A stretch of DNA of 32,000 bases, from positions 14,357 to 46,356 of the forward strand of contig APJZ01000007.1 in assembly GCA_000387965.1 (NCBI GenBank), given 5' to 3'. The notes beneath the pieces were generated by a model, which ran no database searches, was not told the origin of the DNA, and worked only from the letters and a program-made list of their open reading frames with translations. Shown piece by piece: positions 5,529 to 31,186 of this stretch. Position numbers and translations under genes: made by a program. How positions within the stretch are numbered: position 1 is the first letter of the stretch; every line of letters starts with the position of its first letter. This DNA is from Candidatus Nanobsidianus stetteri. GTDB taxonomy: Archaea > Nanobdellota > Nanobdellia > Nanobdellales > Nanobdellaceae.

Positions 5529-5793
5529 TCTTTAATATAGATATAACAGAAATTTTAAATGGCTTTTTCAATAACAAGCCTACCTCTTCATTTGAATAAT
5601 CCAATACCTCTACTTCAAAATTTCCCAATTTCTGATAGTATTCTATATCCTTTTTTATATTTTCCGGAACATTTTTTGCTAAAAATATCTTTTCTACTTT
5701 TCCCCTTTTAACCATTTTCAAAGTTCTATTATATCCAATAATTATTTTCTTCTCATCAACAATTTTCTTTCTTAAATCATCAAATGTTACCAT
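5521..5793 (-). CDS. rpl30e: 50S ribosomal protein L30e
   Basis: 90 aa. [40 protein letters not shown]...[16 protein letters not shown] follows the archaeal L30e pattern. Position directly after rpoA2 is canonical. Confidence 0.88.
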
Positions 5794-5819
5794 AAAATCT
5801 ATCTATATAAAAAATATTT

Positions 5820-11339: not shown

Positions 11340-11341
11340 TT

Positions 11342-12814
11342 TTATTTTTTATCTGAAATATTTTTAATTATTGGCCTTAATCCTATATCCTCTAACTTTC
11401 TAATCAATTCATTTTTATCAACCTCTTCAAAACTTATCTTTGCCAATATTGTTTTATTTTTTCTTAATCCAGTTTCATGACCTTCTGGTGTTTCTATTAA
11501 ATCCAATCTACCCCAATGAGTACCATGAGCCATTCTTGCTTCTAATAATTCAGCTTCACCAGATATTGAAGAAACAACCCTTGTTAAATGAGATAAAACA
11601 GAAATTTTATTTGTTCTATCTAAAGCCTGAGAAATTCCTGTTCTATTCCTTGTCCATTTTCCAATGGCCATTACATTTTCAAATCTTTCAGTAAATATTT
11701 TTGATCTAAATATAGATGTATATGAAGGTATTTTTCCTCTTTTTACCAACCTTTCATATTGATACATTGCATCTGTCATCAATGTTCTTAAAGCAACTAA
11801 GAAATATTCTCTAATTAATTCTCCAGGTGTTCTAACTATTTTATTTGCAAAGTGATCTTTTATGTCTTCATCAATTTTTCCATGAGCCAACAATAATAAT
11901 TTTCTTGCCATCTTTAATAAATTATATGCTTTTAATAATCTATCATTTGGAGATGTTCCAATATTCGTTAATAATAAATTATCCAATATTGATAATAATT
12001 TTTCTCTTTTAACTTCTGGAGATCCTGTTAATTTTAATTTATCAGCTAAATATCTTATTGCATCTTCAGATGTTTTTATATTTTGAAATTCTAATAAATT
12101 AATATATACTTCTTCAAAATCTTCTCCTTCAGAAATTAACTGATTTATTTCAACATCCTTTTCTAAACCTAAAGCCCTTACTAAAGGTATTAACGGAATC
12201 TTTTTATATTTCTCAAATGTTAAATATAATAAACCATCTTTTGTCATCTCCATTCTATGAGCTTTTAATTGAGTTAAAGATTCAGATAATAAATATCCAC
12301 TATATTTTATAGAACCTGATTCTCTTTGAACATAAAATTTATTTGTACCAAGTTCTTCAGATAATATAATTAATTTTTCATTTCCATTAATAATAAAATA
12401 TCCACCTTTATCTGTCGGATCTTCTCCAATTCTTATTAATTCTTCTTCAGATAAACCATAAGTATTACAATATTTTGATCTAACCATTATTGGCAATCTA
12501 CCAATAGCTACTTGATATTTACTTTTAAATGTTTCATTTTCATATACAGAAAATTCCATAAATACTGTTCCGGAATATGTAAGTTTTCTAATCCTAGCCT
12601 CCATCGGATATATTAATCTAGAAACACCCTCCTTCTCCATAAAGTCTGCCTTCTCCAACCACAATTTCTCTATTTTAAATTGCAAATCCCTTAATCCTGG
12701 AGCTAATAATCTTGGAGAGAATGTTCCCAACTCTCTTCCTATCTTCGTCATTTCTACATCAACAAAATATTCAAAAGATCTTAGTTGTACTCCTAACAGA
12801 TCATTTTCCTCCAA
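11342..12814 (-). CDS. rpoB2: DNA-directed RNA polymerase subunit B'' (N-terminal half of split RpoB)
   Basis: 490 aa with a TTG start in the ORF track. Blocks GRLPIMVRSKYC, GGYFIINGNEKLIILSE, SHLTRV, HGTHWGRLDLIETPEG. Ends 2 nt before rpoB1. Confidence 0.95.
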   Translation of the reverse strand: MEENDLLGVQLRSFEYFVDVEMTKIGRELGTFSPRLLAPGLRDLQFKIEKLWLEKADFMEKEGVSRLIYPMEARIRKLTYSGTVFMEFSVYENETFKSKYQVAIGRLPIMVRSKYCNTYGLSEEELIRIGEDPTDKGGYFIINGNEKLIILSEELGTNKFYVQRESGSIKYSGYLLSESLTQLKAHRMEMTKDGLLYLTFEKYKKIPLIPLVRALGLEKDVEINQLISEGEDFEEVYINLLEFQNIKTSEDAIRYLADKLKLTGSPEVKREKLLSILDNLLLTNIGTSPNDRLLKAYNLLKMARKLLLLAHGKIDEDIKDHFANKIVRTPGELIREYFLVALRTLMTDAMYQYERLVKRGKIPSYTSIFRSKIFTERFENVMAIGKWTRNRTGISQALDRTNKISVLSHLTRVVSSISGEAELLEARMAHGTHWGRLDLIETPEGHETGLRKNKTILAKISFEEVDKNELIRKLEDIGLRPIIKNISDKK

Positions 12815-12892
12815 ATATTTATAGAATAAGATATAATTTATCTGTATTATTATTAGCCACTTTTTATTTATATATATGATATCTTTATAAGC

Positions 12893-13207
12893 TTAATCTT
12901 CTACAACAACTCTATAATATATTTCTTCTCCAGTCCATGGATTATTTCTTATAATCTTAACAATATCTCCAGGCTTAGCATTTAAATTCTTTAATGCTGG
13001 ATCTGAAATTTTGATCTTTGGTAAATCTGATAAGGATACTTTATATTTTTCTAATAATTCTTTCTTTTCCTCTTCAGATAATATTATATGTTTTGGTACT
13101 AAATAATGTTTTGTTATATCAATTTCCGATAATTCCCTTGAACTTTCTTTATGTTTATTAGCCTTAGAATCTTTTTTAGACTTAAACTTTTTAGTAGATT
13201 TAACCAT
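12893..13207 (-). CDS. rpoH: DNA-directed RNA polymerase subunit H (Rpb5-like) with a basic N-terminal extension
   Basis: 104 aa. The C-terminal 70 aa ([69 protein letters not shown]) is a classic RpoH. It is the first gene of the RNAP cluster. Confidence 0.9.
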
Positions 13208-13257
13208 TTATTTAATTTTTATAAAAAACTTATAACTTTACCTCTTAGATATTAGGA

Positions 13258-14109
13258 ATGGGCGGAATAGCCATATTCACAAAAACCAATTTACAAGATT
13301 ATAGAATAATAAAATTAAAAGAGGAAATAAAAAATTATAATAACATTAGCATCATTGATATAGAAAAAGAAAATATATTTCCATATAGTGAAAAAATATT
13401 AAACTATGAATTATATTACTTTTTTGTTGGATCAAATTTTTTATCGGATATACATTTTTTGGCAAAATATCTCGAACAAAATGGAAAAGAAGTAATAAAT
13501 AAAATACATGTTAAAGAATCTATAATATCAAAAACTTTATTTTATAGTATCTTAAATAAATATATAAAAATTCCAGAATTTGTGAAAATATATTCGATAG
13601 ATAATATAGAATATGTAATAAATAAGATTGGATTTCCAATGATAATAAAGCATCAATTTATTCATAGAGGAGAATTTGTACATAAAATAGATAATGAAAA
13701 AGAGTTATATGATTTTTTAGAAAAATATTTATTAGAAAAGAAAATAAACATAAAAAATTTAATATTTCAAAAATATATACCTTATGAGAAAGATATAAGA
13801 GTAATTTTCGTAGGAAAACCAATTGGTGCAATGGAAAGAATTAATAAAAATAGTTTTAAAGCAAATATTAGTCAGGGAGGATATGGGAAAGAATATAAAT
13901 TGGATGAAGAAATAATAGATATTGGATATAAAATTATGGAAAAATGTGAATTACAAATATTTGCATTCGATCTATTATTAAAAGATAATCAATATTATTT
14001 GATAGATTTACATCATATATTCCAATATGAGGGATTTGATAAATATTTAAATAAAAATATTACAAAAGAAATATTAAAATACTTAAATGAAATTAGTAAT
14101 AAAAGCTAA
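13258..14109 (+). CDS. ATP-grasp family ligase (RimK-like)
   Basis: 283 aa. Pattern GFPMIIKHQF..G.FVHKIDNEKEL, LIFQKYIPYEKDIRVIFVG, KANISQGGYGKEY and FAFDLL...YYLIDLH matches the RimK/LysX-type ATP-grasp core. Substrate unknown. Confidence 0.7.
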   Translation: MGGIAIFTKTNLQDYRIIKLKEEIKNYNNISIIDIEKENIFPYSEKILNYELYYFFVGSNFLSDIHFLAKYLEQNGKEVINKIHVKESIISKTLFYSILNKYIKIPEFVKIYSIDNIEYVINKIGFPMIIKHQFIHRGEFVHKIDNEKELYDFLEKYLLEKKINIKNLIFQKYIPYEKDIRVIFVGKPIGAMERINKNSFKANISQGGYGKEYKLDEEIIDIGYKIMEKCELQIFAFDLLLKDNQYYLIDLHHIFQYEGFDKYLNKNITKEILKYLNEISNKS

Positions 14110-14494
14110 AGGAAATAAATTAATAAAGGCAACACATAAAAGTACTTTAGAACTTACTAAGGATAATTATCTAACTGAAAGGGGTGATTGTATAATTGGT
14201 ATAAGTGCAAATTATTCTGTAAAAGACTTACCAGAAGATCTTAAAGATCATTTATTAAATGAAGGAAAGATAAAGATTGTAATTAAAGTTGATGATTTAA
14301 TAGATGATATAATTGCATATGGTTCGAGAAAATTATTGTTAACAAATGATAGAAGTATTGTTATAAGAAAAAGCAATTATATTGATGATAGAACTTTAGC
14401 AATAAATTCAAATAAGAGTGCTATTGATATTGATAGAGAATTGATAGAAAGATTAAAAAATGAAAGGGAAATGGAATTTATTATATACTACTAA
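14087..14494 (+). CDS. DUF371-like protein
   Basis: 135 aa. KATHKSTLELTKDNYLTERGDCIIGISA resembles the conserved DUF371 N-terminal block as I recall it. Overlaps the ATP-grasp gene by 23 nt. Confidence 0.55.
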   Translation: MKLVIKAKGNKLIKATHKSTLELTKDNYLTERGDCIIGISANYSVKDLPEDLKDHLLNEGKIKIVIKVDDLIDDIIAYGSRKLLLTNDRSIVIRKSNYIDDRTLAINSNKSAIDIDRELIERLKNEREMEFIIYY

Positions 14495-14499
14495 AAATA

Positions 14500-14507
14500 T
14501 TTATAAA
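14500..14507 (+). promoter_or_regulatory. TATA-box-like element upstream of the surface-protein operon
   Basis: TTTATAAA is centred about 27 nt upstream of the ATG at 14531, the spacing expected for a leaderless archaeal transcript. AT-rich background makes chance matches likely. Confidence 0.3.
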
Positions 14508-14530
14508 GAATAAAATGTTTATCCTTAATT

Positions 14531-15292
14531 ATGAAAAGGAGAGGTATAGATATGGCTGTCCAATTAATATTTGTAATAATAATAATGCTAGTAGTAGCAG
14601 TTATTGTAATTAAGTTATTCCAGCAACAATCGTCAAAGATTAGTCAAATATCAAATACACAAATACAACAGGCAGTTTCTGATTGTTCAAGCTATTGTTC
14701 AAGCCCATATACATTTTGTACAAAGTATGAAAATATAGGAAATGGGCTTGTAGAAGTAAGTCCTGGATATTATGTTTGTTCAAATGCTGTTCCATGTAGT
14801 GTAGCATTACAATTATATGGAGGCTCTTCTAGTCAATGCCAATATGAAGGATTTACTATAACACCCCTTGATTGTATGTATCTAGAATGTCAAAATTATA
14901 TTGATAATTTATATTATGATCCATTAGCAGCAACAAGTTATGTATTTGGAAATTATTCTTCTACTACATATTTTAATGCAACAACTGGACAAGAAAATAT
15001 ACAAATTTCTTCTCCATCTCAAATATTAAATCCAGGTCCAGTACAATGTTCTGCACAATTACCAACATGGATTACAAATCAAGTATTTGGTGCATTATTA
15101 AAGATTATTAACTATTATGATACTGCAGATAATTGTAATTTGAATTTAACAGTTATTAATGGAGCATTAATGGTAACTGGAAATTGTACAACATTGGGTA
15201 TAAATAATAATGTCAATGGAATGCCATTATGTCAATTCTTATTGCAAGTACCATATTCCCAGTTAAATAATATACCAAGTACAACAAGCTAA
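14531..15292 (+). CDS. Secreted Cys-rich protein with class III (type IV pilin-like) signal peptide
   Basis: 253 aa. The N-terminus MKRRG/IDMAVQLIFVIIIMLVVAVIVI has a basic leader ending in Gly followed by a hydrophobic helix. There are 12 Cys and several N-x-S/T sequons. An alternative start at ATG 14552 is preceded by GGAGAGGT (14538-14545). Confidence 0.6.
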   Translation: MKRRGIDMAVQLIFVIIIMLVVAVIVIKLFQQQSSKISQISNTQIQQAVSDCSSYCSSPYTFCTKYENIGNGLVEVSPGYYVCSNAVPCSVALQLYGGSSSQCQYEGFTITPLDCMYLECQNYIDNLYYDPLAATSYVFGNYSSTTYFNATTGQENIQISSPSQILNPGPVQCSAQLPTWITNQVFGALLKIINYYDTADNCNLNLTVINGALMVTGNCTTLGINNNVNGMPLCQFLLQVPYSQLNNIPSTTS

Positions 15293-15296
15293 TGTA

Positions 15297-17267
15297 ATGA
15301 GTTTTTTTGAATATTTTTATAATAACTTCAATTTAATAAAATTAAAAGCTCCTAGTCCAATATATAAAAAATATGCATTTCATTTATGGTTAAATAGATT
15401 AAATACAAATCCGGATAATATATTTTCTTCTGTAATAACTCTTATAGTATTTTCTATAATCATATATTTCATTTTAAGTTTAGTAAGCTTTCAATTAGCT
15501 TTTTCTTTATTAATATCATTATTAATATTATCATTTTACTTTGCATATTATCCAATATTTTATACACAAGTTGTTAGAATACAAGTAACATCAGAAATTG
15601 TATGGATAATATTATATTTGTCATTATATCTAAAAAGGAATCCAAATTTAGAAAATGGAATAAAATATGTAGCATATTATATGAAAGGTTATATTGCAAC
15701 AGACTTTAGATCATTATTATATAATTTGGAAACAAATAAATTTAATGATATTGAATCTGCATTGGAATATTATCAGAGAAGATGGTTTTATTTGAGTCCG
15801 GATTTCGTATATGCAATGACCCATATTGTAAATATTAAATATAAGAATTCTATTGATGATATAAATAAATTATTAGATAGAATTTTGGAATGGGTATTGA
15901 AAAAGTCTTTAGAAAAATCTCAAATATATGTAGATGCATTAAAGGAACCAGCAACAGTTATAGTATCTTTCCTAGTAATGATGCCAATAGTTAGTTTGAT
16001 GATGTTACCAATAATATCTGTATTTTTATTAAATACTGTAAGTTTCTATTTCATAGCATTTTCATATATAATAATTTTACCAGTTATTACATTTTTAATA
16101 ATTCAAAATTTCTTATCAAAAAATCCATTTGCATTTTCTGTTCCAGATTTATCTTTAGCAAGAGATCTACCAAAACCTGGAAAATTTAAAATCGGAAATA
16201 AAGAAGTTCCAGCAATAATAATTTCAATAATATTAGGATCAATTGCAGTTTTAGGAATATATCATTTAATTTCCCTAGCTATAAAAATTACATTTATTCC
16301 ACAGGGATTTTTAAATGATTATTTAAATATAGTTTATCAAGATAGAGCATTAATATATTCTGTTTTAACTTTAACATTACCTTTAGGATTGGGTTTGGGT
16401 ATAGGATCTTATTATTATCTAACATCTTTCCAAAAGGTTAAAAAAATATATCAAATTGAAGAAATAGAAAATGAGTTCCCTATTGTTGTATATGAATTCG
16501 CATCATTATTAGAAGATGGCTATCCATTTGAGATAGTAATTGAAAAAACATATTACAATTATAAAATAATAAAATCTTCAGGGGTTATGGAAAATTTTCT
16601 AAAAACAACATTATATAATTTAAGAAGAGGTTATGATTTAATTACTTCTGTATTCGATCCAAAAATTGGTTCATTAAACTTATATCCATCAAAATTAGTA
16701 AGAGAATCAATGCAATTGTTAGTTACTTCTGCATCAAAAGGTCCTGAAGTTTTATCAAAAATTGCATATAATGTATCAACAAATTTAGAAAATGTGGATA
16801 ATATAAGATATAATGTAAGGAAAATATTAAATGAAATAATTGGATTAATAGATATGACATCAAGAAATCTAGTACCATTAATTTCTGCAATGGTTACGGT
16901 TTTTAATAATGGAGTAGTTTCAATGCTTTTTGCACTTGCATATTTCTTTCAATTAATAGACCAATCTTTTGGTTTAGGTGGGGGATCAAACTTATTCAAT
17001 TTCGTTGTAAATACATTTAATTTATATAATTTAATACCACCAACATTTTTTGAAGCAATAATCGGTATATTCTTTATAGAATATGTAATAATAACCTCAT
17101 ATATGAGTGCTGGAATAAAATATGGATTTGATAGAACAATGACATCATATTATATAGGTAGAAATTTATTATTCGGAACAATATTTTATGTAACATTTTC
17201 AATAATAGGAATATTAATAGTATATACAGTATTTGGCCCATATTTACCAACAAATATACAATTATGA
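15297..17267 (+). CDS. Polytopic membrane protein, candidate FlaJ/TadC/PilC-like (T2SS-F type) assembly platform
   Basis: 656 aa. Two soluble helical segments are each followed by TM bundles, the duplicated T2SS-F layout: about aa 95-215 (EIVWIILYLSLYLKRNPNLENGIKYVAYYM...DIESALEYYQRRW) and about aa 395-510 (EFPIVVYEFASLLEDGYPFEIVIEKTY...LRRGYDLITSVF...SKLVRESMQLLV). Judged by eye, not by profile search. Confidence 0.45.
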   Translation: MSFFEYFYNNFNLIKLKAPSPIYKKYAFHLWLNRLNTNPDNIFSSVITLIVFSIIIYFILSLVSFQLAFSLLISLLILSFYFAYYPIFYTQVVRIQVTSEIVWIILYLSLYLKRNPNLENGIKYVAYYMKGYIATDFRSLLYNLETNKFNDIESALEYYQRRWFYLSPDFVYAMTHIVNIKYKNSIDDINKLLDRILEWVLKKSLEKSQIYVDALKEPATVIVSFLVMMPIVSLMMLPIISVFLLNTVSFYFIAFSYIIILPVITFLIIQNFLSKNPFAFSVPDLSLARDLPKPGKFKIGNKEVPAIIISIILGSIAVLGIYHLISLAIKITFIPQGFLNDYLNIVYQDRALIYSVLTLTLPLGLGLGIGSYYYLTSFQKVKKIYQIEEIENEFPIVVYEFASLLEDGYPFEIVIEKTYYNYKIIKSSGVMENFLKTTLYNLRRGYDLITSVFDPKIGSLNLYPSKLVRESMQLLVTSASKGPEVLSKIAYNVSTNLENVDNIRYNVRKILNEIIGLIDMTSRNLVPLISAMVTVFNNGVVSMLFALAYFFQLIDQSFGLGGGSNLFNFVVNTFNLYNLIPPTFFEAIIGIFFIEYVIITSYMSAGIKYGFDRTMTSYYIGRNLLFGTIFYVTFSIIGILIVYTVFGPYLPTNIQL

Positions 17268-17548
17268 AATTACAACAATCAGTATATTGGATTATAATAA
17301 CTTTTATATTAATTATAGCTGCTGGTCTATTTTCTTTTTATTATATTTATAATGTAAAAAATAATTTAAGTGGAAATAATATACAAACAATTAATTGCCA
17401 ACAGTTGGAAAATTTATATAATAAAAGTTTTCAGGAAATAATTAATATTAAAGTATTTCTTAATGAAAATTGTACAATAAATGGAATAACAATACCTGCT
17501 GGCTATAGAATTATATATATTTATAACGGAAGTATTAATTATATATGA
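17264..17548 (+). CDS. Small pilin-like secreted protein
   Basis: 94 aa. N-terminus MKLQQSVYWIIITFILIIAAGLFSF. ATGA start/stop overlaps with both neighbours. Confidence 0.5.
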   Translation: MKLQQSVYWIIITFILIIAAGLFSFYYIYNVKNNLSGNNIQTINCQQLENLYNKSFQEIINIKVFLNENCTINGITIPAGYRIIYIYNGSINYI

Positions 17549-18024
17549 AAAATGATATAGCAATAGATACTGTATTTATTATCATAATAGCAATAATATC
17601 TGTTGCAGTTATATTAGATATTATTTACACAAAATTCTTTTACAATTCTCAAGCATATTATTGTCAATCATTAATATCACAAGGTGGTTTTTCTCCATCA
17701 TGTGAAAAATATTATCCTTCAGCAATAAATATTATATATACGAATGAAAGTAAGGATACAATTTATTCAGATATAACAGGATTGATATTAAATTGCTACA
17801 ATAATAATGTAAATACAAATAAATTATTTAACATATGTTATGATATTTATATAGATGAAAATATTACTCTACATTCATCAACATTAATTCAATACATACA
17901 AACTTATACTTCATTTAATCCAAATAATGTTATATTTCATTTAAATAATAGTGATGGAAATATTTATCCATACAATAGTATATTTATAATATACAACAAT
18001 AGTTATATTGTAATATGGCAATAA
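17545..18024 (+). CDS. Small pilin-like secreted protein
   Basis: 159 aa. N-terminus MKNDIAIDTVFIIIIAIISVAVILDIIY. Contains Cys residues and sequons. Translationally coupled. Confidence 0.5.
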   Translation: MKNDIAIDTVFIIIIAIISVAVILDIIYTKFFYNSQAYYCQSLISQGGFSPSCEKYYPSAINIIYTNESKDTIYSDITGLILNCYNNNVNTNKLFNICYDIYIDENITLHSSTLIQYIQTYTSFNPNNVIFHLNNSDGNIYPYNSIFIIYNNSYIVIWQ

Positions 18025-18428
18025 AGTCTCAAGAACTTCCAATTAATTATACCTTCTTAATAATTATAGGAATAATTGTTGTATCAGTAATTACTGGAAT
18101 AATATTTTTATTAAAAGGAAATATAACTTCTTATATTAGTAATACAATACCTAAATATAATAATACGCAAACTGTAGTAGAAACAAATGTAAGTTCAGTA
18201 CAAGATGTTGCAATGGATGTTGTAGCATGTTATTATAAAAAAGCGCAGGGTCTTTGTTATTTAATTAATTATCAAGGATCTCCATTTACATGTCAAGATT
18301 TAATAAACAATGTAAGTAGTATAGATCCAAACGTAGTAATGCAAAATTGCAATTATAATATAAATCCTGGAGAATATATATTAGTATATTCGGCAGGAAA
18401 TTATGTTTATATTAATGTTCAAGGATAA
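18015..18428 (+). CDS. Small pilin-like secreted protein
   Basis: 137 aa. N-terminus MAIKSQELPINYTFLIIIGIIVVSVITGIIFLL. Overlaps the upstream gene by 10 nt. Confidence 0.5.
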   Translation: MAIKSQELPINYTFLIIIGIIVVSVITGIIFLLKGNITSYISNTIPKYNNTQTVVETNVSSVQDVAMDVVACYYKKAQGLCYLINYQGSPFTCQDLINNVSSIDPNVVMQNCNYNINPGEYILVYSAGNYVYINVQG

Positions 18429-18430
18429 AA

Positions 18431-18871
18431 ATGGAAAAGTGGTTTTGGATAATTGTAACAATTATTGCATTTGGTTTATCTTTATATTTATATTTTAAAT
18501 TTTCCAGTATAAATAATCAGACTCAATTATTATATCAGGATATATCTTCATGCCAAAATTTATATACAACCATTGAAAAAGTATGTTATTCAAACAATGG
18601 AACGGAATTGTATATTAATATTGAAATAAATAAGTATTTAAATTATATATATGCTAATAATAATTTATTAAGTTGCTATATATATAATGAATATTATAAT
18701 TATACAATACCATGTAATGTAATAATAAATACAGCAAATAATATGATTCAATATTATACTTCCGGACTATTTTATGAATTATCATATGGATATCCAAATG
18801 AAAAAATTCCATTACTTGTTGAAAAAACTTCTCCAACAGAAGTAACAATTTATATAGAAAATCCAAGTTAA
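18431..18871 (+). CDS. Small N-terminally anchored secreted protein
   Basis: 146 aa. N-terminus MEKWFWIIVTIIAFGLSLYLYF. Starts 2 nt after the previous stop. Confidence 0.45.
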   Translation: MEKWFWIIVTIIAFGLSLYLYFKFSSINNQTQLLYQDISSCQNLYTTIEKVCYSNNGTELYINIEINKYLNYIYANNNLLSCYIYNEYYNYTIPCNVIINTANNMIQYYTSGLFYELSYGYPNEKIPLLVEKTSPTEVTIYIENPS

Positions 18872-18907
18872 AACATTTTTAAAATTTTTAAATATTATTA
18901 GATCATA

Positions 18908-20407
18908 ATGAAAAGATATCAATTAAATTTACTTTCAGTAGCAATAATATTGGTAATTATATCTTTAGCTTTTATAATATATTATCAATATTCTATGAAT
19001 GTTAAAGAACAACAAGAAAATTTAATATTTGAAAATTTTATTAATAACTTACAAAATTTAGAAAATACAATAAATAGTATTCAAGGTACATATTATATAA
19101 AAGTCAATATACCAAATGGAATTATATTATATGCAAATGGCCCAAAATTAATAATACAATATAATAATAATAATTATACAATTGATTTTCAAAACAAGAC
19201 AGTAGTTTTATATAATAATAATCAAAATGTGAACTTTTTATATCCAAATAATCATATATATATTGTTAGTACAAATAATACTATTTTTGTTACAACAAAT
19301 CTTCAAAATTCAATTACAATATTAAATGAATATCTATCAAATGGAAATCTTGTATATATAAATCCTGAAAACATAAATAACAATAATGAAGGAAATAATC
19401 AAGGAAATAACAATAATAATATTAACCAAAATGTTCAATGCTTATTTCAATATAATGGACAAGCAAACTTTTTCTGGGGTGATGTAAATGGAAATAATTA
19501 TTTACCTCCAATAGGAGATCAGGGAGAATGTGGAGATTGTTGGGCTTTTGCATCTGCAAATGGAATTGCTTCAATATATATGATAAGAAATAATCAACCA
19601 AATGATGGATTACAATTATCCCCAGCATATTTAGCAATAGAGTGCAATAATGGATATCCAAACACTCCAAATTATTGTAATTCCAATGAAGGTTGTACTG
19701 GTGGTGTTGTATATCCTGCTCTATTATTTACATCTCAATATGGAATTCCACCTGATCAAGGATGGAACTATTATAATTCTACTTTAGCTAACTGTTTAGA
19801 AAATAATAATCAAAATTATCCTGGTGATGTATGTAATTACAATTATAATGGACCTAACTCTCCATTATATTATTCGCAAGGTGTTATATTTCTTACACAA
19901 AATGGACCTTTAACAGATCAACAAGTAATTCAAGATTTATTATGTTATGGACCATTAGTAGCTGCCGGATTTCTAGGAGGTAGTGGTGGATCAAATCCAA
20001 ATATAAATCCTCAACAACCAATACTTAATACAGGACATGCTATGTTATTAGTTGGTTATACCACTAGCAATACTATATATTCCCAACTATGTCAAGAAGT
20101 ATATGAAACCCCTAATTGTTGGATATTTGAGAATCAATGGGGAGATAATTCAGCTTGTATAGTTCTTACTACAAGCGGAGTACCAGTACCTGGACCAAAC
20201 AACCCTAATCAGTGTGGTGAATTATATCAAAATTATCAGGATTGTAATAATTATCTACAATTGGTTCTTAAAGTACCCGGAGTATCATGTGGAGGTGTGT
20301 ATTGGATGCAAGATGGATATTTGCTTGTACCATTCGATCAATCCTCATATGGCCAAACATTTCCATACTATATAGTTGCAATTCAAAATGTCACTCTCGC
20401 ACAATAA
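18908..20407 (+). CDS. N-terminally anchored papain-like (peptidase C1) cysteine protease
   Basis: 499 aa with an N-terminal helix MKRYQLNLLSVAIILVIISLAFII and an Asn-rich linker. The C-terminal domain has DQGECGDCWAFASANG (Gln at -6 and the catalytic Cys codon at 19538-19540), NTGHAMLLVGY (His) and FENQWGDN (Asn-x-Trp). Confidence 0.8.
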   Translation: MKRYQLNLLSVAIILVIISLAFIIYYQYSMNVKEQQENLIFENFINNLQNLENTINSIQGTYYIKVNIPNGIILYANGPKLIIQYNNNNYTIDFQNKTVVLYNNNQNVNFLYPNNHIYIVSTNNTIFVTTNLQNSITILNEYLSNGNLVYINPENINNNNEGNNQGNNNNNINQNVQCLFQYNGQANFFWGDVNGNNYLPPIGDQGECGDCWAFASANGIASIYMIRNNQPNDGLQLSPAYLAIECNNGYPNTPNYCNSNEGCTGGVVYPALLFTSQYGIPPDQGWNYYNSTLANCLENNNQNYPGDVCNYNYNGPNSPLYYSQGVIFLTQNGPLTDQQVIQDLLCYGPLVAAGFLGGSGGSNPNINPQQPILNTGHAMLLVGYTTSNTIYSQLCQEVYETPNCWIFENQWGDNSACIVLTTSGVPVPGPNNPNQCGELYQNYQDCNNYLQLVLKVPGVSCGGVYWMQDGYLLVPFDQSSYGQTFPYYIVAIQNVTLAQ

Positions 20408-21215
20408 ATATTTAATAGCATTATCTATTCTCTTTTTCATAATTTTATCTTACAATATATATTCTATGAGGAATCCATTTGCAGTTTATTGCGAATATGG
20501 TGGAGGAACATATTATATAAATAGTACAGGATCTTATTGTATTGTAAATGGTACATATTTTAATGCTCTACAATATTATGAGAATAATGTGCCTCCCCAA
20601 TATTCTTTCTGTGCCCATTATGGATTAATATATGTAAATAACAGTTATTGTGAATATCCAAATGGAACATTAGTTAGTCCATATACATTAATCCCTCCAT
20701 CAACATATCAAGACCTAATTTTACCTACACCACCTATATTATGTAATAGTTTATTAAATTGTTCAAATACTCCTTGGTATTATCAACCATGTTCAAATCA
20801 AATCTATCCATGCTTTAATCCTCCATATATACCCCAATCTTACTTAACAGGTAATACTTCTTATCAAACTCTTTTATCTACATATCAACAAGAATATCAA
20901 TGTGGGTATTGTCCAGAAAACTTATCATTTGAAGGAGATTGGTTTAGATGTCCATATAATTATTCATTAAATCAGTTATATCAAGAATTTCTAAAACAAT
21001 GTCCACCACCAAATATTGTTTATATATCATGTACAGGAGTATTTGAATGCGTAAATCAGACTGAAATAAATTTAACAAATAATACACAGCAATTAATTTA
21101 TCCACAACCAAATATAAGTAATAAAAGTAATAATGTTAATTTAATTTTACCAATAGCAATAGTAATAGTAATAATTATAATAGGCCTAGTTATTCTTTTA
21201 TATTATCTAAAATGA
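20376..21215 (+). CDS. Cys-rich surface protein with DUF333-like repeats and a C-terminal TM anchor
   Basis: 279 aa with a signal-like segment YLIALSILFFIILSYNIYS. NPFAVYCEYGGGTYYINSTGSYCIVNGTYF resembles the DUF333 (COG3042) NPA-x-VYC...GG...YC pattern, and FCAHYGLIYVNNSYCEYPNGT is a weaker second copy. C-terminal LILPIAIVIVIIIIGLVILLYYLK. The start is uncertain (ATG 20388 also possible). Confidence 0.45.
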   Translation: MQFKMSLSHNKYLIALSILFFIILSYNIYSMRNPFAVYCEYGGGTYYINSTGSYCIVNGTYFNALQYYENNVPPQYSFCAHYGLIYVNNSYCEYPNGTLVSPYTLIPPSTYQDLILPTPPILCNSLLNCSNTPWYYQPCSNQIYPCFNPPYIPQSYLTGNTSYQTLLSTYQQEYQCGYCPENLSFEGDWFRCPYNYSLNQLYQEFLKQCPPPNIVYISCTGVFECVNQTEINLTNNTQQLIYPQPNISNKSNNVNLILPIAIVIVIIIIGLVILLYYLK

Positions 21216-22825
21216 AAAATCAGATAAATACATTAGCATTTGTTATTATTATTTCAATAATAATTTTATTAATTGTTTTAGTTTATCTTTTATCAACTAG
21301 TTCTAGTTCTAAAATAACACAAACATATAATGTAGAAAACCAATATACATTAACAATTCAAAATAGCGTTGATTTATTACCTTATATTTATGATAATAAA
21401 GTTAATTTATCCTATGCATTTTTATTATCATATTTTTCATCTTCTGGAAATGATACATATTGTATAAATCAAAATACATGTACAAACATATCGGAAGATT
21501 TAATAAATTACTTTGACAGTATATATGGAAATAGATGGAATTTAACTATATATTTTATCCCACCAGTAACTGGATGGGTTGTTCAGATGTTTATAATAGG
21601 TGGTAATATTGGAAATTGGGATCCGTGTTCAATGAATCCTCCCCCAGATCCCAATGGTACGCAATGGTATGAATGGAATTACACATATTTCTTTGTAGAT
21701 AATTATACAGAAAATATTAATCTACCGAATGTATACAATCCAATTACTAATACGCCAATAAGTCAAACCTTATATGGAGCAGGATGGGTAAATGCAACAG
21801 CACCTTTTCATCAGTCTAATTCAATAAGTTCTTGGGGATTACCAACATTATATAATAACCTGGATCAATCTCAGGCAATACAAACAGGTTTCTGTACACC
21901 ATTAACAAAAATATTTCCAAATTATAATTTTACAGAAGCTTCTGTATATTGCCCTCAAGGTAAATGGAATCTATTTCCAAATTTTGGAACTTCGCCAACT
22001 TCTTCATTACCACAATTTTTCTCTGGTTGGATAGGAATTGGAACTCCAGTAGCAGGCTCTCAATATTTAACAGATGTTGGTTACTATTATTATGGACCTC
22101 CAACATATAAAACAGCTACTGATATAAATAGATTAGCAGAATTTATAATCCCACAACAATATTTAGATAAAATATGCCAAGAAGAATTTGGTACTCAGCA
22201 ATGCGGGAGTCAAGAATTGATTGTTGGGTCATTTTATAGAGGTGTAGTAAATATACCACCAAATTGTCAGCAAGTATTTATAGATTATCCCTGGCATGAA
22301 GTAATAAGATTATATATTTCATTTTTGAATAAGAGCGGAGAACCAGATTATGTATTTTTAGCGGCAGATCCTCTATGTGAATATAATTTAAATGGAAAAT
22401 TAATAGATTGTCCAACTGGTGTATTTGATAATATACAAAATGTAAATGGAATTATTGTTGGAAAAGACTGTCCTCTAGTTTATTTAATGGATCAAAATTC
22501 ATATGCCGAAGGATTGTATAGATTTAATATTACTAAATGGGTAATAGATGATAGAGATTCAAATACAAATCAATTTATAATTTCTGCAGTATATTATGAT
22601 CCTCATAATGGAGGAAATGGAGTTGCAATGGCAAGAGTATATTGTATTACAAATACTGGAAATAAAGAAGAATTAAACGCATATATTTATCAAGGTAATG
22701 AAGAAAGTATAAATCTAGGATATCCAATACCTCCGAATACAAATATATATGTTTATTATATATATTTACCAGTAGATGTATCATTCTTGGGCGGATATTT
22801 AGTTGCTAAATTAACAGTATGGTAA
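21212..22825 (+). CDS. Large pilin-like-anchored secreted protein, unknown fold
   Basis: 537 aa. N-terminus MKNQINTLAFVIIISIIILLIVLVYLL. Many Cys and N-x-S/T sequons. ATGA overlap with the upstream gene. Confidence 0.55.
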   Translation: MKNQINTLAFVIIISIIILLIVLVYLLSTSSSSKITQTYNVENQYTLTIQNSVDLLPYIYDNKVNLSYAFLLSYFSSSGNDTYCINQNTCTNISEDLINYFDSIYGNRWNLTIYFIPPVTGWVVQMFIIGGNIGNWDPCSMNPPPDPNGTQWYEWNYTYFFVDNYTENINLPNVYNPITNTPISQTLYGAGWVNATAPFHQSNSISSWGLPTLYNNLDQSQAIQTGFCTPLTKIFPNYNFTEASVYCPQGKWNLFPNFGTSPTSSLPQFFSGWIGIGTPVAGSQYLTDVGYYYYGPPTYKTATDINRLAEFIIPQQYLDKICQEEFGTQQCGSQELIVGSFYRGVVNIPPNCQQVFIDYPWHEVIRLYISFLNKSGEPDYVFLAADPLCEYNLNGKLIDCPTGVFDNIQNVNGIIVGKDCPLVYLMDQNSYAEGLYRFNITKWVIDDRDSNTNQFIISAVYYDPHNGGNGVAMARVYCITNTGNKEELNAYIYQGNEESINLGYPIPPNTNIYVYYIYLPVDVSFLGGYLVAKLTVW

Positions 22826-24027
22826 AAAAAGAAGATAAGATTTTATTTCTTATATATTTAATTTTGTTTTTACTTTTTATTTATATTAGCAACTTTAATA
22901 TTAATATAATTATCTTTGGTACAATATATTTATTCTTATTGTCCTTTATATTAAAAAATTCGAAGAATACATCTTTAATATACAAATTAACATTTTTATA
23001 TATACCAATTGGGATTTTTGGAATTTATACCAATCTACCTTTACCATTTCCATTTCCGTCAATATTTACTTATGTAGTAAATTATTGGATATTTTATTTT
23101 ATAGCATTTTCTTTAGGATATTATCTATTTGAAAACAACTTTTATATTTCAAAAAAATCTCTAATATTCTATATAATTTCTATAATTTTATATATAATAT
23201 TATTTTTCTTTGAATTAATATATAATTCTGTAACTACAGATTTAGATGTATCAGTGGGAAATATAATAATTTTATTTCTTATCTTTGTCTCTCTATATCT
23301 ATATATTTTCAAAATAATATATTCATCTCTATTTATAATATTTGCCATATTCTTATTTCTAGTTGCATATTTTAATAGCAATGAAATATTAATAGTAAAA
23401 ACAAAAATATATGAAAAGATATCAAAAATATATAAATACAAAAAGTATATATTTCTGTTAATATTTCTTATAATAATATTACAGATTATCATTGCTATAA
23501 ACAAATTATTATTGTATAATGGTTTAATTATAGAAAGTTCAACTGGAAAATATATTATCTACGAATATGAATCTCTAATATTTTTATCTATATACGAATT
23601 TATAATTTACTTTTTAGTTTATAGAAATTTAAGATATAATAATTATACAAGTTATTTCTTACTTTTTACTATGGTTTTAATAATATTTTTTGGAGAACTA
23701 TATTTATCAAATGTAGATTTTACTTCTGCAGCTTTACATACTAGATATCTAATAGCTATGCTATTTTTCTTTATGGGTATACACCATAAAATATATAAAA
23801 ATAGTAAAAGAGTAATTACAAAAGCTCTAGGTATTTCTATTGGTATTTTAATCTTGTTACAAAATATAACTGGAGAATTCCTTGAATCAGTATTGTTTGG
23901 AGGACCAAGTAGTATACATTTAGTATCTATACCAAATATATTAATAGCACTCGGAATTATACATGGATTAGTAACGCCAATTCTTATATTAACATTTATA
24001 TATTTACATATTAAATTAAAAATATGA
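22819..24027 (+). CDS. Polytopic membrane protein (copy A; C-terminal 2/3 lies inside the inverted repeat)
   Basis: 402 aa with about 10 hydrophobic segments. From VGNIIILFLIF onward it is identical to the partial ORF 31183..32000 (-). Confidence 0.6.
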   Translation: MVKKEDKILFLIYLILFLLFIYISNFNINIIIFGTIYLFLLSFILKNSKNTSLIYKLTFLYIPIGIFGIYTNLPLPFPFPSIFTYVVNYWIFYFIAFSLGYYLFENNFYISKKSLIFYIISIILYIILFFFELIYNSVTTDLDVSVGNIIILFLIFVSLYLYIFKIIYSSLFIIFAIFLFLVAYFNSNEILIVKTKIYEKISKIYKYKKYIFLLIFLIIILQIIIAINKLLLYNGLIIESSTGKYIIYEYESLIFLSIYEFIIYFLVYRNLRYNNYTSYFLLFTMVLIIFFGELYLSNVDFTSAALHTRYLIAMLFFFMGIHHKIYKNSKRVITKALGISIGILILLQNITGEFLESVLFGGPSSIHLVSIPNILIALGIIHGLVTPILILTFIYLHIKLKI

Positions 24028-24606
24028 GAAATCAAACAGAAATTATTTATGTAGTTTTATTTCTAACAATTGCTATATTAATAATCCTTCTATCTTTCTA
24101 TGCATTGACATATAATTATAATCAAAATATTGTTTTTAATAGATTCACTTCTTTATCTACACTATCAAACTATTTTTTGGGATATTTACAAACATTATTA
24201 ACACAGGAAAGTTATGCAGAATCATATTTAGCTGGAACAAATGGATGGGGAAAAGAAAATTGGGCTTCTTATCCTTACGGATGTATATTACCTCAATCAT
24301 GTCAAAATGCAATTCAATATTATAATAACTTGCTAACTTCTGGATATCAAACTTTATTAACTTTTGGAGAACAATATTTAACTGCATATCAATATTATTA
24401 TCCTTATAATGTATCTTTCAATTTTTCAAATAATTATCAGGCAGGAATCTTCGGAGATTGTAATAATATAATTTCCGGAGAATATAATTATAATTTTCCT
24501 GTCTATGTTCAAGGATTATATATAAATATTACTGGACCTTCTTCAGGTTCAATAATTCCATATGCAAGTACATCAAATATAACAAACAATCCCGCATTCT
24601 ATTTAT
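23210..24606 (+). repeat. Inverted repeat arm A (at least 1397 bp, identical to arm B)
   Basis: Position x here pairs with position 55210-x on the opposite strand. Spot-checked DNA at 23211-23260, 24001-24060, 24361-24420 and 24591-24606. All four ORF-track proteins in the arms are identical between copies. Confidence 0.9.
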
Positions 24607-24614
24607 TTAACTAA
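24024..24614 (+). CDS. Truncated duplicate of the 412-aa pilin-like Cys-rich protein
   Basis: 196 aa. The first 194 aa are identical to ORF 29948..31186 (-). Identity ends at 24606 and a TAA follows at 24612-24614. Confidence 0.5.
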   Translation: MRNQTEIIYVVLFLTIAILIILLSFYALTYNYNQNIVFNRFTSLSTLSNYFLGYLQTLLTQESYAESYLAGTNGWGKENWASYPYGCILPQSCQNAIQYYNNLLTSGYQTLLTFGEQYLTAYQYYYPYNVSFNFSNNYQAGIFGDCNNIISGEYNYNFPVYVQGLYINITGPSSGSIIPYASTSNITNNPAFYLFN

Positions 24615-25086
24615 TCAATCATCAATAATTGGAATAGCGGTTGCAACAAATGTAATAAGTTTATATGTTGGACAAGAATATAAATATTCTGTCTTAATAA
24701 AAAATCTAGTACCAGCAGATATTCAATGTTCTTTAGTACCAACTCCATCAACTACAAACGATAAAGCAATTGTTACAAATTATAGTATAAATGGAATAGT
24801 TAGCAATGAATTTACTATAGGTCCTTATGGATCTGCAGAATTAGATATAAATATTTTAGGATCTTCCAGTGGTGTAAGTAGTTTGGTATATGGTATAACA
24901 TGTAATTCTACATATGGTTCCTCATCATTTAGTACCCAAGTTCCAATATATGTATTGGGACCAAATAATTTAATAGCAAACTATACACAATCTGAAATAG
25001 TAGTATCTGAAAATATATCTCCAACAGATTTAATTGGAATTGGGGGTTTAATAGTAGGATTACTTGCTTTGTTTAATATAATCTAA
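24583..25086 (+). pseudogene. Start-less open frame encoding a beta-rich surface module with a C-terminal TM anchor (orphaned 3' gene part, or joined to 24024..24614 by a +1 shift)
   Basis: Frame 1 is open from 24583 to the stop at 25084-25086, about 167 codons, with no ATG/GTG/TTG before the TTG at 24883. The translation ...LIKNLVPADIQCSLVPTPSTTNDKAIVTNYSINGIVSNEFTIGPYGSAELDINILG...PTDLIGIGGLIVGLLALFNII looks like real coding sequence. It begins exactly where the repeat identity ends. Confidence 0.4.
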
Positions 25087-29230: not shown

Positions 29231-29870
29231 TTCTAAAGTATGTTTGATTAATTCTTTCTAAATATGCTGTTACAAGTTGATAAAATGTAATATTATTTAC
29301 TGAATAGCATGGTATATAATTGCATATAATATCTCCATTTGTATTTTCAGTACATGTTACATTTCCAGATAAATTTGTTGGAAATAAGAATACAAAAGTT
29401 TGATTTGAAGTATTTTCATTACTTAAACAAAAACTATATAAAAAGTAATAGAAATCTGAATAATAGTTTTTACATATAGTTAATTTAATATAGTCTAAAG
29501 AATAATATACAGAAATTGGATATGTATATGTATTACAATTTCCATTAAAATTTATTATTCCAAAACTATAATTATCTATTTCTGCTCTAAATGTATAGGG
29601 AAATATTGTACAATTTGGAAGTTCATTATAATATGTTTGGTTAAATTCTTCTATTTTATCTAAAGTTGTAAAATATATTGGATAGCCAGGATATCCTAAA
29701 CAATTGGGAGAAAATAGGTCATATATTATATCTTGTTCATATGAAAAAGATGTTTGTTCTTGATAATTTGTTAAATTTACATTGGAAAATATAGCTAATA
29801 AAATTATCATTCCAACTAAAAATAATACTGTTAATATTGTTATAAATACTATGGAAAATTGCTCTTTCAT
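29223..29870 (-). CDS. Pilin-like-anchored Cys-rich secreted protein
   Basis: 215 aa. N-terminus MKEQFSIVFITILTVLFLVGMIILLAIF. Many Cys and N-x-S/T sequons. Confidence 0.5.
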   Translation of the reverse strand: MKEQFSIVFITILTVLFLVGMIILLAIFSNVNLTNYQEQTSFSYEQDIIYDLFSPNCLGYPGYPIYFTTLDKIEEFNQTYYNELPNCTIFPYTFRAEIDNYSFGIINFNGNCNTYTYPISVYYSLDYIKLTICKNYYSDFYYFLYSFCLSNENTSNQTFVFLFPTNLSGNVTCTENTNGDIICNYIPCYSVNNITFYQLVTAYLERINQTYFRIA

Positions 29871-29947: not shown

Positions 29948-31186
29948 TTAACTGGATGGTTGTGGTACACATTCATTTGGGAAATTTATATTTTCTGGGC
30001 AAGTTGGATTATTTGGACATTGTCCAAGTAAACATGCAGGACATTGTTGTCCACCAATTATACACATATAACATTGAATTGGGATTGAATAATAATATTG
30101 AAAAGTATATATTACTTCATTATTTTGCTGATTTGTATTTAAATTACCACAACCACTTTGGGAAGTACATGAATATTGTTGATTTTCTAATGTACAACTT
30201 TGAGATATTATTTGTTTGCTTGTTGAATTATATACTTCAGTACAGTCATATACACAATTTAGATAATATTGATTTGTTATATTTTCATAAAAAACTATTG
30301 AAGTAATAGATATGGTTTGTGGATATGTATTACCATTATAATATACATTATATTGGTTATCAGAACATTTTAATATTACTCTACATGCAATTTCTTGTGG
30401 ATATAAACATATCTGGCATAATGGAATATTTACACATTGATATGGAATTATTGTTTCATTACATTGAATATTTGGATCATTTGAAAATTGCTCAAATTCT
30501 TGTGCACAAGTATATGTTGGGTTATTGTTTAAAGCATTTGAACAATCCTGATATGAACATTCTGAAAAATCTCCATTTTGAGAGAATTGATATGCTAAGT
30601 TATATAAATAGAATGCGGGATTGTTTGTTATATTTGATGTACTTGCATATGGAATTATTGAACCTGAAGAAGGTCCAGTAATATTTATATATAATCCTTG
30701 AACATAGACAGGAAAATTATAATTATATTCTCCGGAAATTATATTATTACAATCTCCGAAGATTCCTGCCTGATAATTATTTGAAAAATTGAAAGATACA
30801 TTATAAGGATAATAATATTGATATGCAGTTAAATATTGTTCTCCAAAAGTTAATAAAGTTTGATATCCAGAAGTTAGCAAGTTATTATAATATTGAATTG
30901 CATTTTGACATGATTGAGGTAATATACATCCGTAAGGATAAGAAGCCCAATTTTCTTTTCCCCATCCATTTGTTCCAGCTAAATATGATTCTGCATAACT
31001 TTCCTGTGTTAATAATGTTTGTAAATATCCCAAAAAATAGTTTGATAGTGTAGATAAAGAAGTGAATCTATTAAAAACAATATTTTGATTATAATTATAT
31101 GTCAATGCATAGAAAGATAGAAGGATTATTAATATAGCAATTGTTAGAAATAAAACTACATAAATAATTTCTGTTTGATTTCTCAT
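29948..31186 (-). CDS. Pilin-like-anchored Cys-rich secreted protein (full-length copy)
   Basis: 412 aa. N-terminus MRNQTEIIYVVLFLTIAILIILLSFYAL. About two dozen Cys, densest at the C-terminus (CYMCIIGGQQCPACLLGQCPNNPTCPENINFPNEC). The first 194 aa lie in repeat arm B. Confidence 0.6.
   Translation of the reverse strand: MRNQTEIIYVVLFLTIAILIILLSFYALTYNYNQNIVFNRFTSLSTLSNYFLGYLQTLLTQESYAESYLAGTNGWGKENWASYPYGCILPQSCQNAIQYYNNLLTSGYQTLLTFGEQYLTAYQYYYPYNVSFNFSNNYQAGIFGDCNNIISGEYNYNFPVYVQGLYINITGPSSGSIIPYASTSNITNNPAFYLYNLAYQFSQNGDFSECSYQDCSNALNNNPTYTCAQEFEQFSNDPNIQCNETIIPYQCVNIPLCQICLYPQEIACRVILKCSDNQYNVYYNGNTYPQTISITSIVFYENITNQYYLNCVYDCTEVYNSTSKQIISQSCTLENQQYSCTSQSGCGNLNTNQQNNEVIYTFQYYYSIPIQCYMCIIGGQQCPACLLGQCPNNPTCPENINFPNECVPQPSS

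Follow-up and report, generated by a model that had tools for sequence, protein, structure and literature searches.

The gene cluster that begins at position 14531 of the window (the whole stretch of 32,000 nucleotides that was analysed) is best read as one half, platform plus subunits, of a type IV filament (T4P-like) system in the Nanopusillaceae, which would be powered by an ATPase acting in trans and would serve contact with the host. A probability of about 0.6 is given to this reading. The cluster is a good candidate for a host attachment operon, as a variant of a known system and not a new kind of machine. It comprises 13 genes, the last three of which lie outside the run originally delimited.

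Gene content and genomic setting

Contig OBNano_10008 belongs to Candidatus Nanobsidianus stetteri Nst1, a symbiotic archaeon of tiny size, and the window is formed by the 3' 32 kb of this contig. The following features were assigned to the operon (a slash marks the expected cleavage site).

14495-14530, forward strand: intergenic region upstream of W1, with a TATA-like box, TTTATAAA, ~27 nt before the ATG
14531-15292, forward strand: W1 (Nst1_637), candidate pilin, 253 aa, start MKRRG/IDMAVQLIFVIII, 12 Cys, predicted helix at residues 3-37
15297-17267, forward strand: W2 (Nst1_638), predicted divergent FlaJ/TadC (T2SSF) platform, arCOG01814, 656 aa
17264-17548, forward strand: W3, single-pass and pilin-sized, 94 aa, start MKLQQ followed by a hydrophobic helix
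17545-18024, forward strand: W4, small single-pass protein, 159 aa, start MKNDIA/ID, paralogue of W5
18015-18428, forward strand: W5, small single-pass protein, 137 aa, start MAIKS/QELP
18431-18871, forward strand: W6, small single-pass protein, 146 aa, a module related to the N-terminal module of W7
18872-18907, forward strand: W6/W7 spacer, 36 nt, with two T5 runs, TTTTTAAA(TA)
18908-20407, forward strand: W7 (Nst1_643), 499 aa, start MKRYQ and hydrophobic helix, module of ~140 aa, Asn-rich linker, C1 peptidase domain
20388-21215, forward strand: W8, 275 aa, ordinary signal peptide, DUF333-like motif NP-x-AVYC-x-Y-GG, 14 Cys, 13 sequons, C-terminal TM anchor
21212-22825, forward strand: W9 (Nst1_645), 537 aa, start MKNQ and hydrophobic helix, large Cys-rich ectodomain
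22819-24027, forward strand: W10 (Nst1_646), lineage-specific polytopic membrane protein, 402 aa, weak paralogue of W14
29948-31186, reverse strand: W12, true gene 11, 412 aa, start MRNQ and hydrophobic helix, 24 Cys
29223-29870, reverse strand: W13, true gene 12, 215 aa, start MKEQ and hydrophobic helix, 8 Cys, 10 sequons
28160-29230, reverse strand: W14, true gene 13, 345-356 aa, polytopic membrane protein, weak paralogue of W10

Eleven ORFs were counted on the forward strand between 14531 and 24614. The co-directional run of the original prediction is present and its junctions are as described, with overlaps of 4 nt at 17264, 17545, 21212 and 24024, of 10 nt at 18015 and of 7 nt at 22819, and gaps of 4 nt and 2 nt; the count and the right boundary did not stand (the ORF at 24024-24614 is a truncated copy, see below). 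W7 and W8 overlap by 20 nt (ATG at 20388) or 32 nt (TTG at 20376). The single larger spacer, 36 nt with its two T5 runs, was found where expected and is possibly a partial terminator or an internal promoter, while the box TTTATAAA is a possible promoter for a leaderless transcript. Scans for tRNA and Rfam families gave no matches in the whole window.

The Cys-rich and sequon-rich composition claimed for the cluster also holds: its single-pass proteins contain 3.63% Cys, 2.46 N-x-S/T per 100 aa and 2.8% K+R, compared to 0.49%, 0.47 and 14.0%, respectively, in the remaining window genes. Synteny is conserved, the locus forming a syntenic unit of the Nanopusillaceae; a locus search with the closer alignment A3 returned five loci. 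A mobile-element location was rejected: in every genome the cluster is flanked by the RNA polymerase operon on one side and by genes for ribosomal proteins on the other.

The platform protein

The 656-aa product of W2 had been likened to the FlaJ/TadC/PilC platforms, and this is supported by Pfam matches of its family, profile comparison, an AF2 model and gene context. W2 itself falls below every Pfam threshold; among its 17 homologues PF00482 (T2SSF) was matched in five (best E 5e-9), the matches falling to the distant ones, of 24-29% identity. The family profile matched the EpsF/GspF cytoplasmic domain in the PDB with E 0.0086. In the AF2 model (pLDDT 85.4) a local Foldseek match was obtained to the EpsF cytoplasmic domain (2vmb_A; probability 0.99, TM 0.68, 3.1 A) and, more weakly, to a PilC model; the whole-chain Foldseek search returned nothing significant (best E 0.21). 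The duplicated layout proposed for this protein was recovered only faintly, hhalign detecting an internal duplication with E 0.004 and a probability of 8%. Published tables assign W2 to arCOG01814 (Wurch 2016 supplement), the TadC family of T4P subclade 4F (Makarova 2016).

Across the relatives the identity of W2 is 95/78/77/62/54%, against 97/80/80/68/62% for RNA polymerase A'. The other genes of the cluster drop to 26-42% at L007, the largest distance. Conservation nearly like that of an RNA polymerase subunit argues that W2 is a working protein.

Pilin-like proteins and their N-termini

The class III signal proposed for gene 1 (KRRG/IDMAVQ) was supported by eye and by the orthologues: all seven carry [KR]-[GAS] followed by [IVL]-[DE]-M-A and a hydrophobic stretch. 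Residues 1-61 of W1 match a KKRG pilin-like protein located 3' of an ATPase-platform pair in the Woesearchaeota locus L016. In the AF2 model of W1 (pLDDT 73.8), residues 3-37 form a helix that precedes a mixed alpha/beta domain, and with this model Foldseek matched no solved pilin fold in the PDB (best E 3.5).

Six further families share a hydrophobic helix preceded by M-K-N-Q, a conserved start that is not canonical. The motif M-[KR]-x-Q was found in 6 of the 47 ORFs in the window, all within the cluster, and the N-terminal motifs of the cluster are kept across five to seven orthologues. Position -1 is occupied by N, S, Y, E or L in W3, W7, W9, W12 and W13, by A, T or S in W4, and by S in W5. 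Most of the pilin-like N-termini are non-canonical, with residues of this kind in place of the expected G or A. A FlaFind-type regular expression fitted none of the cluster N-termini. W4 and W5 are related (hhalign E 2e-5 over 104 columns).

ATPase and prepilin peptidase

No ATPase had been seen in the window, and an HMM built from 40 T2SSE ATPases likewise gave no match among the window ORFs of at least 60 aa, nor in the 10 kb on either side of W2 in seven Nanopusillaceae loci; the same HMM does match beside the platform in L003, L005, L006 and L016. Peptidase_A24 was absent among the window ORFs scanned, in agreement with the claim that the window holds no prepilin peptidase. A homology search with a DPANN ATPase gave, among the matches listed, DPANN proteins of 59-95% identity, which is uninformative on the Nanopusillaceae ATPase.

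The notion of an undescribed machine without an ATPase is not supported, since published tables place four or five FlaI-family ATPases in the Nst1 genome. These include FlaI and its paralogues Nst1_088, Nst1_227 and Nst1_260 (Podar 2013), and the arCOG01818 ATPase Nst1_443, whose neighbour Nst1_442 is another arCOG01814 platform (Wurch 2016 supplement). [quoted passage not shown] No A24 prepilin peptidase is known from these genomes.

The seven loci without an ATPase in cis and the want of a known prepilin peptidase would suit an island of surface proteins with a relic platform, in which glycoproteins with unprocessed type II signal anchors lie under the S-layer together with a protease, and W2 no longer assembles filaments. 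The non-canonical -1 residues and the lack of a pilin-fold match for W1 fit this as well, as do the proteome values of Wurch 2016, where the cluster proteins went undetected (none are given for the N. acidilobi orthologues Nps_00480-00525). We nevertheless regard a relic platform as unlikely, if worth serious thought: W2 is conserved almost as closely as an RNA polymerase subunit, W1 has [KR]-[GAS] where cleavage is expected in every orthologue and shares N-terminal homology with a canonical pilin, and M-K-N-Q is conserved more than a plain anchor requires.

Protease, ectodomain proteins and orphan membrane proteins

The papain-like protease of the original prediction was confirmed in W7 by a match to PF00112 (Peptidase_C1; E 1.8e-17, 64.6 bits against a cut-off of 20.7). 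The catalytic residues Q205, C211, H377 and N409 are invariant in six orthologues, and the matches in the PDB were ananain and cathepsins, CGDCWAF aligning to the CGSCWAF of ananain. By these sequence criteria W7 is a papain-type protease with intact catalytic residues. The protease domain is carried by different pilin-like modules, that of W7 in Nst1 and a W6-type module in YN1, and the modules also occur alone.

For W8 the description as an anchored DUF333-like protein is upheld as far as the motif (NPxxVYC..GG); the Pfam threshold of 25 bits was not reached by W8 against PF03891 (15.6 bits, E 0.02) or by two orthologues (20.8 and 21.3 bits, E 3-5e-4), so that this is only a resemblance. The N-terminal ~150 columns of W9 resemble W12, and W9 is a candidate adhesin or large minor pilin. 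Some members of the W9 cluster bear the JGI label "pseudopilin PulG". W10 has no Pfam match and only seven relatives among 1.84e9 representatives. W10 and W14 were considered as the missing prepilin peptidase and rejected, having no conserved Asp pair, no GxGD, no Pfam match and only those seven relatives.

A protease encoded together with the Sec-type secreted W8, and a platform whose nearest solved structure is the T2SS protein EpsF, might also indicate a T2SS-like use, a short pseudopilus on W2 driving the protease, together with the Cys-rich proteins, across the S-layer instead of forming an adhesive pilus. This is very unlikely in our view. The protease itself carries a pilin-like N-terminus and hence looks like a subunit rather than a cargo, EpsF is among the few solved T2SSF domains, and we know of no established T2SS-type secretion in archaea.

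The right-hand end of the operon

A perfect inverted repeat was identified at the 3' end of the window, its arms enclosing a segment of 5997 nt.

23210-24606: left arm of the inverted repeat, perfect over 1397 nt
24024-24614, forward strand: "gene 11", 196 aa, a truncated duplicate of codons 1-194 of W12
30604-32000: right arm of the inverted repeat, its last base being the end of the window and of the contig

In the assemblies of L012, L013, L014 and YN1, W12 lies directly 3' of W10. In the same four assemblies and in the gene table of N. acidilobi, W1 to W10 are followed on one strand by the genes for the 412-aa, 215-aa and ~345-aa proteins; in the Nst1 window W12 to W14 are inverted (31186-28160). 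The collinear order in the relatives and the truncated state of "gene 11" show an operon of 13 genes that extends beyond 24614, and it was because of the inverted repeat that the earlier gene count and right-hand boundary were wrong. The likeliest origin of "gene 11" is an artefact of assembly or of MDA fold-back. A genomic repeat with a true 11-gene architecture, for example an invertible segment switching the C-terminus of W11/W12, is highly improbable: its perfection over 1397 nt on either side of the segment and a tyrosine recombinase fragment at 244-762 speak for it, but MDA is prone to inverted chimeras, the right arm stops exactly at the contig end, the truncated copy terminates two codons past the repeat breakpoint, and five related genomes, one of ~92% nucleotide identity, are collinear and have no such copy. 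Nst1 is a single-cell MDA assembly (Podar 2013), which further disfavours a true repeat. The locus points to a probable fold-back misassembly in the reference Nst1 contig, which would be the source of a false gene.

Comparison with known systems

Archaeal T4P subclade 4F, typified in Halobacteria, combines an arCOG01818 ATPase, an arCOG01814 TadC and predicted pilins (Makarova, Koonin & Albers 2016). The Nst1 locus resembles it in its arCOG01814 platform with 9-10 TM, in the small predicted pilins 3' of the platform and in the arCOG01818 ATPase elsewhere in the genome. It differs in lacking an ATPase at the locus, with a second platform paralogue beside the ATPase, in Cys-rich subunits unrelated in sequence, in a papain-like protease and two orphan polytopic proteins, and in a signal that is mostly M-K-N-Q instead of [KR]-G.

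The distant platform homologues (24-29% identity) belong to loci of Woesearchaeota, Aenigmarchaeota and related MAGs. All four with upstream sequence (L003, L005, L006 and L016) have a T2SSE ATPase directly upstream (757-772 aa; 1243-1249 aa with an intein in L006), and, on the downstream side, several class III proteins of the [KR][KR]G type. As in Nst1, the platform is followed by numerous proteins, small ones and large ones, that have a short basic N-terminus ahead of a hydrophobic helix, one of them homologous to the N-terminus of W1; unlike Nst1, these loci have the adjacent ATPase and canonical KKG/KRG sites, and no C1 protease.

Split T4P systems (the PilB3-type loci of Haloferax and Halobacterium; Thermoproteales subsystem 4E) also use ATPase/TadC modules served by subunits encoded elsewhere. 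There the machinery is separated from the pilins, whereas in Nst1 the split lies between ATPase and platform, the pilin locus keeping a platform. The modular type IV pilins PilB and PilC of Streptococcus sanguinis share the fusion of a pilin-like N-terminal module to a functional ectodomain; in Nst1 and YN1 the module is found alone too and the ectodomain moves between modules. The Nst1 proteins differ in being archaeal, in having a putative module that is pilin-like by sequence, and in an ectodomain of the papain family, a combination not found in the literature covered.

Proposed organization and function

The Nst1 locus would derive from an ATPase-platform-pilin locus found also in other DPANN (Woesearchaeota, Aenigmarchaeota). 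W2 would be the polytopic FlaJ/TadC platform and W1 the best candidate for the filament-forming pilin. W3 to W6, all small and pilin-like, probably serve as minor or priming subunits. W7, W9, W12 and W13 would be modular, each with a pilin-like N-terminal helix and a large, Cys-rich and probably N-glycosylated ectodomain. W8 is predicted to be secreted and anchored at its C-terminus, and W10 and W14 to be lineage-specific membrane proteins. Energy would be supplied in trans by a FlaI/VirB11-family ATPase encoded elsewhere, for which the best candidate, on the basis of published gene tables, is Nst1_443 (arCOG01818), beside a paralogous arCOG01814 platform without pilins of its own. The likely function would be adhesion to the host and local proteolytic opening of its cell envelope.

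T4P in Nanoarchaeota and a possible role in host attachment have already been discussed (Jarett 2018; Makarova 2016), and the novelty claimed for this idea falls away. Cryo-ET of YN1 and YN4 has revealed an "attachment organelle" of Nanobdellota, and in YN4 a filament of ~8 nm displaces the host S-layer. It is conceivable, though rather unlikely, that the filament and portal parts of this organelle come from the 13-gene operon, with a T4P-derived fibre carrying the papain-like protease that opens the host S-layer, and that the M-K-N-Q subunits are matured by a non-A24 peptidase. If true, such a peptidase would also explain archaellin processing in these archaea.

The operon offers an answer to the gap left in 2016, a nanoarchaeal 4F-type ATPase without identifiable pilins. 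It sharpens a second puzzle, as these archaea have archaella and apparently pilus-like subunits without a recognisable prepilin peptidase, and most of the subunits lack the glycine required by such enzymes. Nanoarchaeota are entirely dependent on touching a host cell, and the contact structures seen by cryo-ET are elaborate and have no assigned genes; for these the operon provides a concrete gene set conserved in the family. One well-conserved machine part together with fast-evolving, Cys-rich surface parts is the pattern expected of host-recognition hardware.

Genomic context

The window has a G+C content of about 25%. Its minus strand holds an archaeal RNA polymerase operon (5820-13207), and ribosomal protein genes are also present. 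Exact protein matches identified window proteins as EOD42220.1 (Nst1_637), EOD42221.1, EOD42226.1 and EOD42228.1 (Nst1_645). The features bearing on the pilus-like operon, whose proteins are named W1 to W10 and W12 to W14 in gene order, are as follows.

13258-14494, plus strand: RimK-like ATP-grasp gene and DUF371 gene, overlapping by 23 nt, directly upstream of the operon
14531-24614, plus strand: run of eleven ORFs
15297-17267, plus strand: W2, FlaJ/TadC-type platform, assigned by distant homologues, profile, model and arCOG
18908-20407, plus strand: W7, papain-family peptidase
31186-28160, minus strand: last three genes of the operon (W12 to W14)

The RimK-like/DUF371 pair occupies the same place 5' of the operon, divergent from rpoH, in every Nanopusillaceae locus examined.

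Three other loci of the window deserve mention. The minus strand at 754-3008 encodes cytochrome bd oxidase subunit I (PF01654, E 7.5e-86), along with a 298-aa protein without a Pfam match that is likely to be subunit II, in an organism reported to be without other respiratory complexes. The density of non-synonymous SNPs in this gene is high (Jarett 2018). A tyrosine recombinase ORF at 244-762 on the plus strand (Phage_integrase, E 3.4e-43) has only 172 aa and a TTG start, and may be a short XerA-like gene, since the whole catalytic-domain profile is covered. A gene for a 271-aa polytopic membrane protein without a Pfam match (4200-5015, minus strand) separates the genes of ribosomal proteins S12 and S7, where an insertion is unusual. 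The protein is not an obvious A24 (prepilin) peptidase, because the GxGD motif is absent.

Operon organization and the inverted repeat

The predicted layout of eleven co-directional, overlapping ORFs was recovered, with gaps of 2-4 nt and a single 36-nt spacer; the size of eleven genes was not, the last ORF being a truncated copy and the unit having 13 genes in relatives. A perfect inverted repeat of 1397 nt has its arms at 23210-24606 and 30604-32000, and direct reading of the sequence places the end of their identity at 24606. ORF 24024-24614 consists of codons 1-194 of the 412-aa ORF 31186..29948 on the minus strand, with a stop two codons past the breakpoint, and is no gene of its own.

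A contig of 127.6 kb from a MAG (L011/L013, ~92% nucleotide identity) is collinear with window positions 5295-24621 and then with 31998 down to 28008. The order W1-W10 followed by the proteins of 412, 215 and ~345 aa is found on a single strand in three other genomes, including the complete YN1, and N. acidilobi likewise has its orthologues of Nst1_658 and Nst1_657 next to that of Nst1_646, which is W10 (gene table of Wurch 2016). The repeat is most likely a fold-back chimera, because Nst1 is a single-cell amplified genome (Podar 2013) and the right arm is the contig terminus, the last nucleotide of the window being the exact end of its 46,356-nt contig; a real strain-specific inverted duplication is less likely than such a chimera. 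The true operon thus has 13 genes. It is real and conserved, and the type IV pilus-like nature first ascribed to it was borne out, as a variant of an already known kind of system.

Platform protein

No Pfam model matched W2 (656 aa) itself. Database searches gave 17 relatives, including DPANN proteins at 24-29% identity with PF00482 (T2SSF), a domain matched by 5 of the 17 family members (best E 5e-9). The family profile matches the EpsF/GspF cytoplasmic domain (E 0.0086). The AF2 model was confident (pLDDT 85.4, pTM 0.82); Foldseek returned no significant whole-chain match to it, but locally it matched the cytoplasmic domain of EpsF (probability 0.99, TM 0.68, 3.1 A) and, more weakly, a PilC model. 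In published tables Nst1_638 is listed under arCOG01814 (Wurch 2016), defined as TadC of T4P subclade 4F (Makarova et al.). The T2SSF relatives, the EpsF matches and arCOG01814 bear out the suggested FlaJ/TadC/PilC-like identity. W2 is almost as conserved across the family as RNA polymerase A'. Divergence is much faster in the remaining operon genes.

In four distant DPANN loci (L003, L005, L006 and L016) the W2 homologue directly follows a T2SSE ATPase of 757-772 aa (1243-1249 aa with its intein in L006), and downstream of it lie numerous genes whose products have class III starts of the KKG or KRG type. Platform-adjacent DPANN ATPases carry an intein (Intein_splicing and LAGLIDADG) in some lineages (L006 6283-10032, P0056, P0094), and an IS605 OrfB/TnpB-type gene lies amid the pilin gene array of an Aenigmarchaeota locus (L005 15893-17041).

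Motor ATPase and prepilin peptidase

Neither an ATPase nor a prepilin peptidase was found in the window, and the seven Nanopusillaceae loci searched had no ATPase up to 10 kb on either side of W2. The motor proposed to be missing is absent from the window but not from the genome, since published tables name ATPases elsewhere: FlaI and Nst1_088, _227 and _260 (Podar 2013), and five secretion ATPases in the tables of Makarova et al. Nst1_443 is an arCOG01818 ATPase beside Nst1_442, a second arCOG01814 platform; no pilins are near them in the published table, and the ATPase was detected in the N. acidilobi proteome (Wurch 2016). For this type of ATPase, Makarova et al. could find no cognate pilins in nanoarchaea, and in two nanoarchaea no recognisable prepilin peptidase. 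The operon is the obvious candidate for the missing subunits of the nanoarchaeal arCOG01818 ATPase, a pairing that we infer from published gene tables.

Papain-family protease

W7, predicted to be papain-like, was confirmed as such (PF00112, E 1.8e-17) and is the sole operon protein above a curated family threshold; an NCBIfam scan of the operon proteins named nothing. The protease is probably active, because six orthologues all keep Q205, C211, H377 and N409. Its pilin-like N-terminal module is a separate gene of 141-143 aa in YN1 and L014. In YN1 (L001/L015, 13201-16741) the protease domain is joined to the W6 module (579 aa), and the rearranged part has extra W7N-like (141 aa) and W8-like (172 aa) genes. 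The same extra genes occur in L014, with no protease domain in the operon region (13201-15920).

Pilin-like subunits and surface proteins

The single-pass operon proteins are rich in Cys and sequons, as had been proposed. Cys makes up 3.63% of their residues and 0.49% in the other window genes, N-x-S/T sites number 2.46 and 0.47 per 100 aa, and K+R amount to 2.8% and 14%, respectively. This composition fits extracellular, probably glycosylated proteins. The class III signal predicted for one protein is that of W1, which in all seven orthologues starts M-[KRG]-[KR]-R-[GAS], then [IVL]-[DE]-M-A-[VI]-[QE]-L and 20 hydrophobic residues. Residues 1-61 align with a KKRG protein of a Woesearchaeota locus. 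In the W1 model a helix spans residues 3-37, and the fold has no match in the PDB. The residue before the hydrophobic stretch is A, T or S in W4 and S in W5.

W3, W7, W9, W12 and W13 share a conserved start, M-[KR]-x-Q (consensus MKNQ), found in 6 of 47 window ORFs, every one inside the cluster. Compared with archaeal class III cleavage sites, the flanking basic residue and Gln are kept and the Gly/Ala at -1 is missing; the pilin-like N-termini claimed for W7 and W9 are of this non-canonical kind. W8, taken for a DUF333-like anchored protein, has an ordinary signal peptide and the C-terminal anchor; its DUF333-like motif is sub-threshold. Profile comparisons relate W4 to W5, W6 to the W7 N-terminal module and W9 to W12 (E 1e-4 to 2e-5), values prone to transmembrane bias and only suggestive of paralogy.

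In Yellowstone metagenomes W1 forms dozens of clusters at 82-95% identity, and one 90% cluster of W2 holds 112 members, which points to surface proteins with strong population-level microdiversity.

Possible role in host contact

Operon orthologues are absent from the N. acidilobi proteome detections (Wurch 2016), which may be due to their chemistry or to low expression. The operon is most naturally read as serving attachment to the host, a role already proposed in general terms for nanoarchaeal T4P (Jarett 2018). Cryo-ET of relatives has revealed an attachment organelle without assigned genes, which in YN4 has a filament of ~8 nm displacing the host S-layer. An attractive candidate link is that the operon would encode parts of this organelle, with the protease opening the S-layer.
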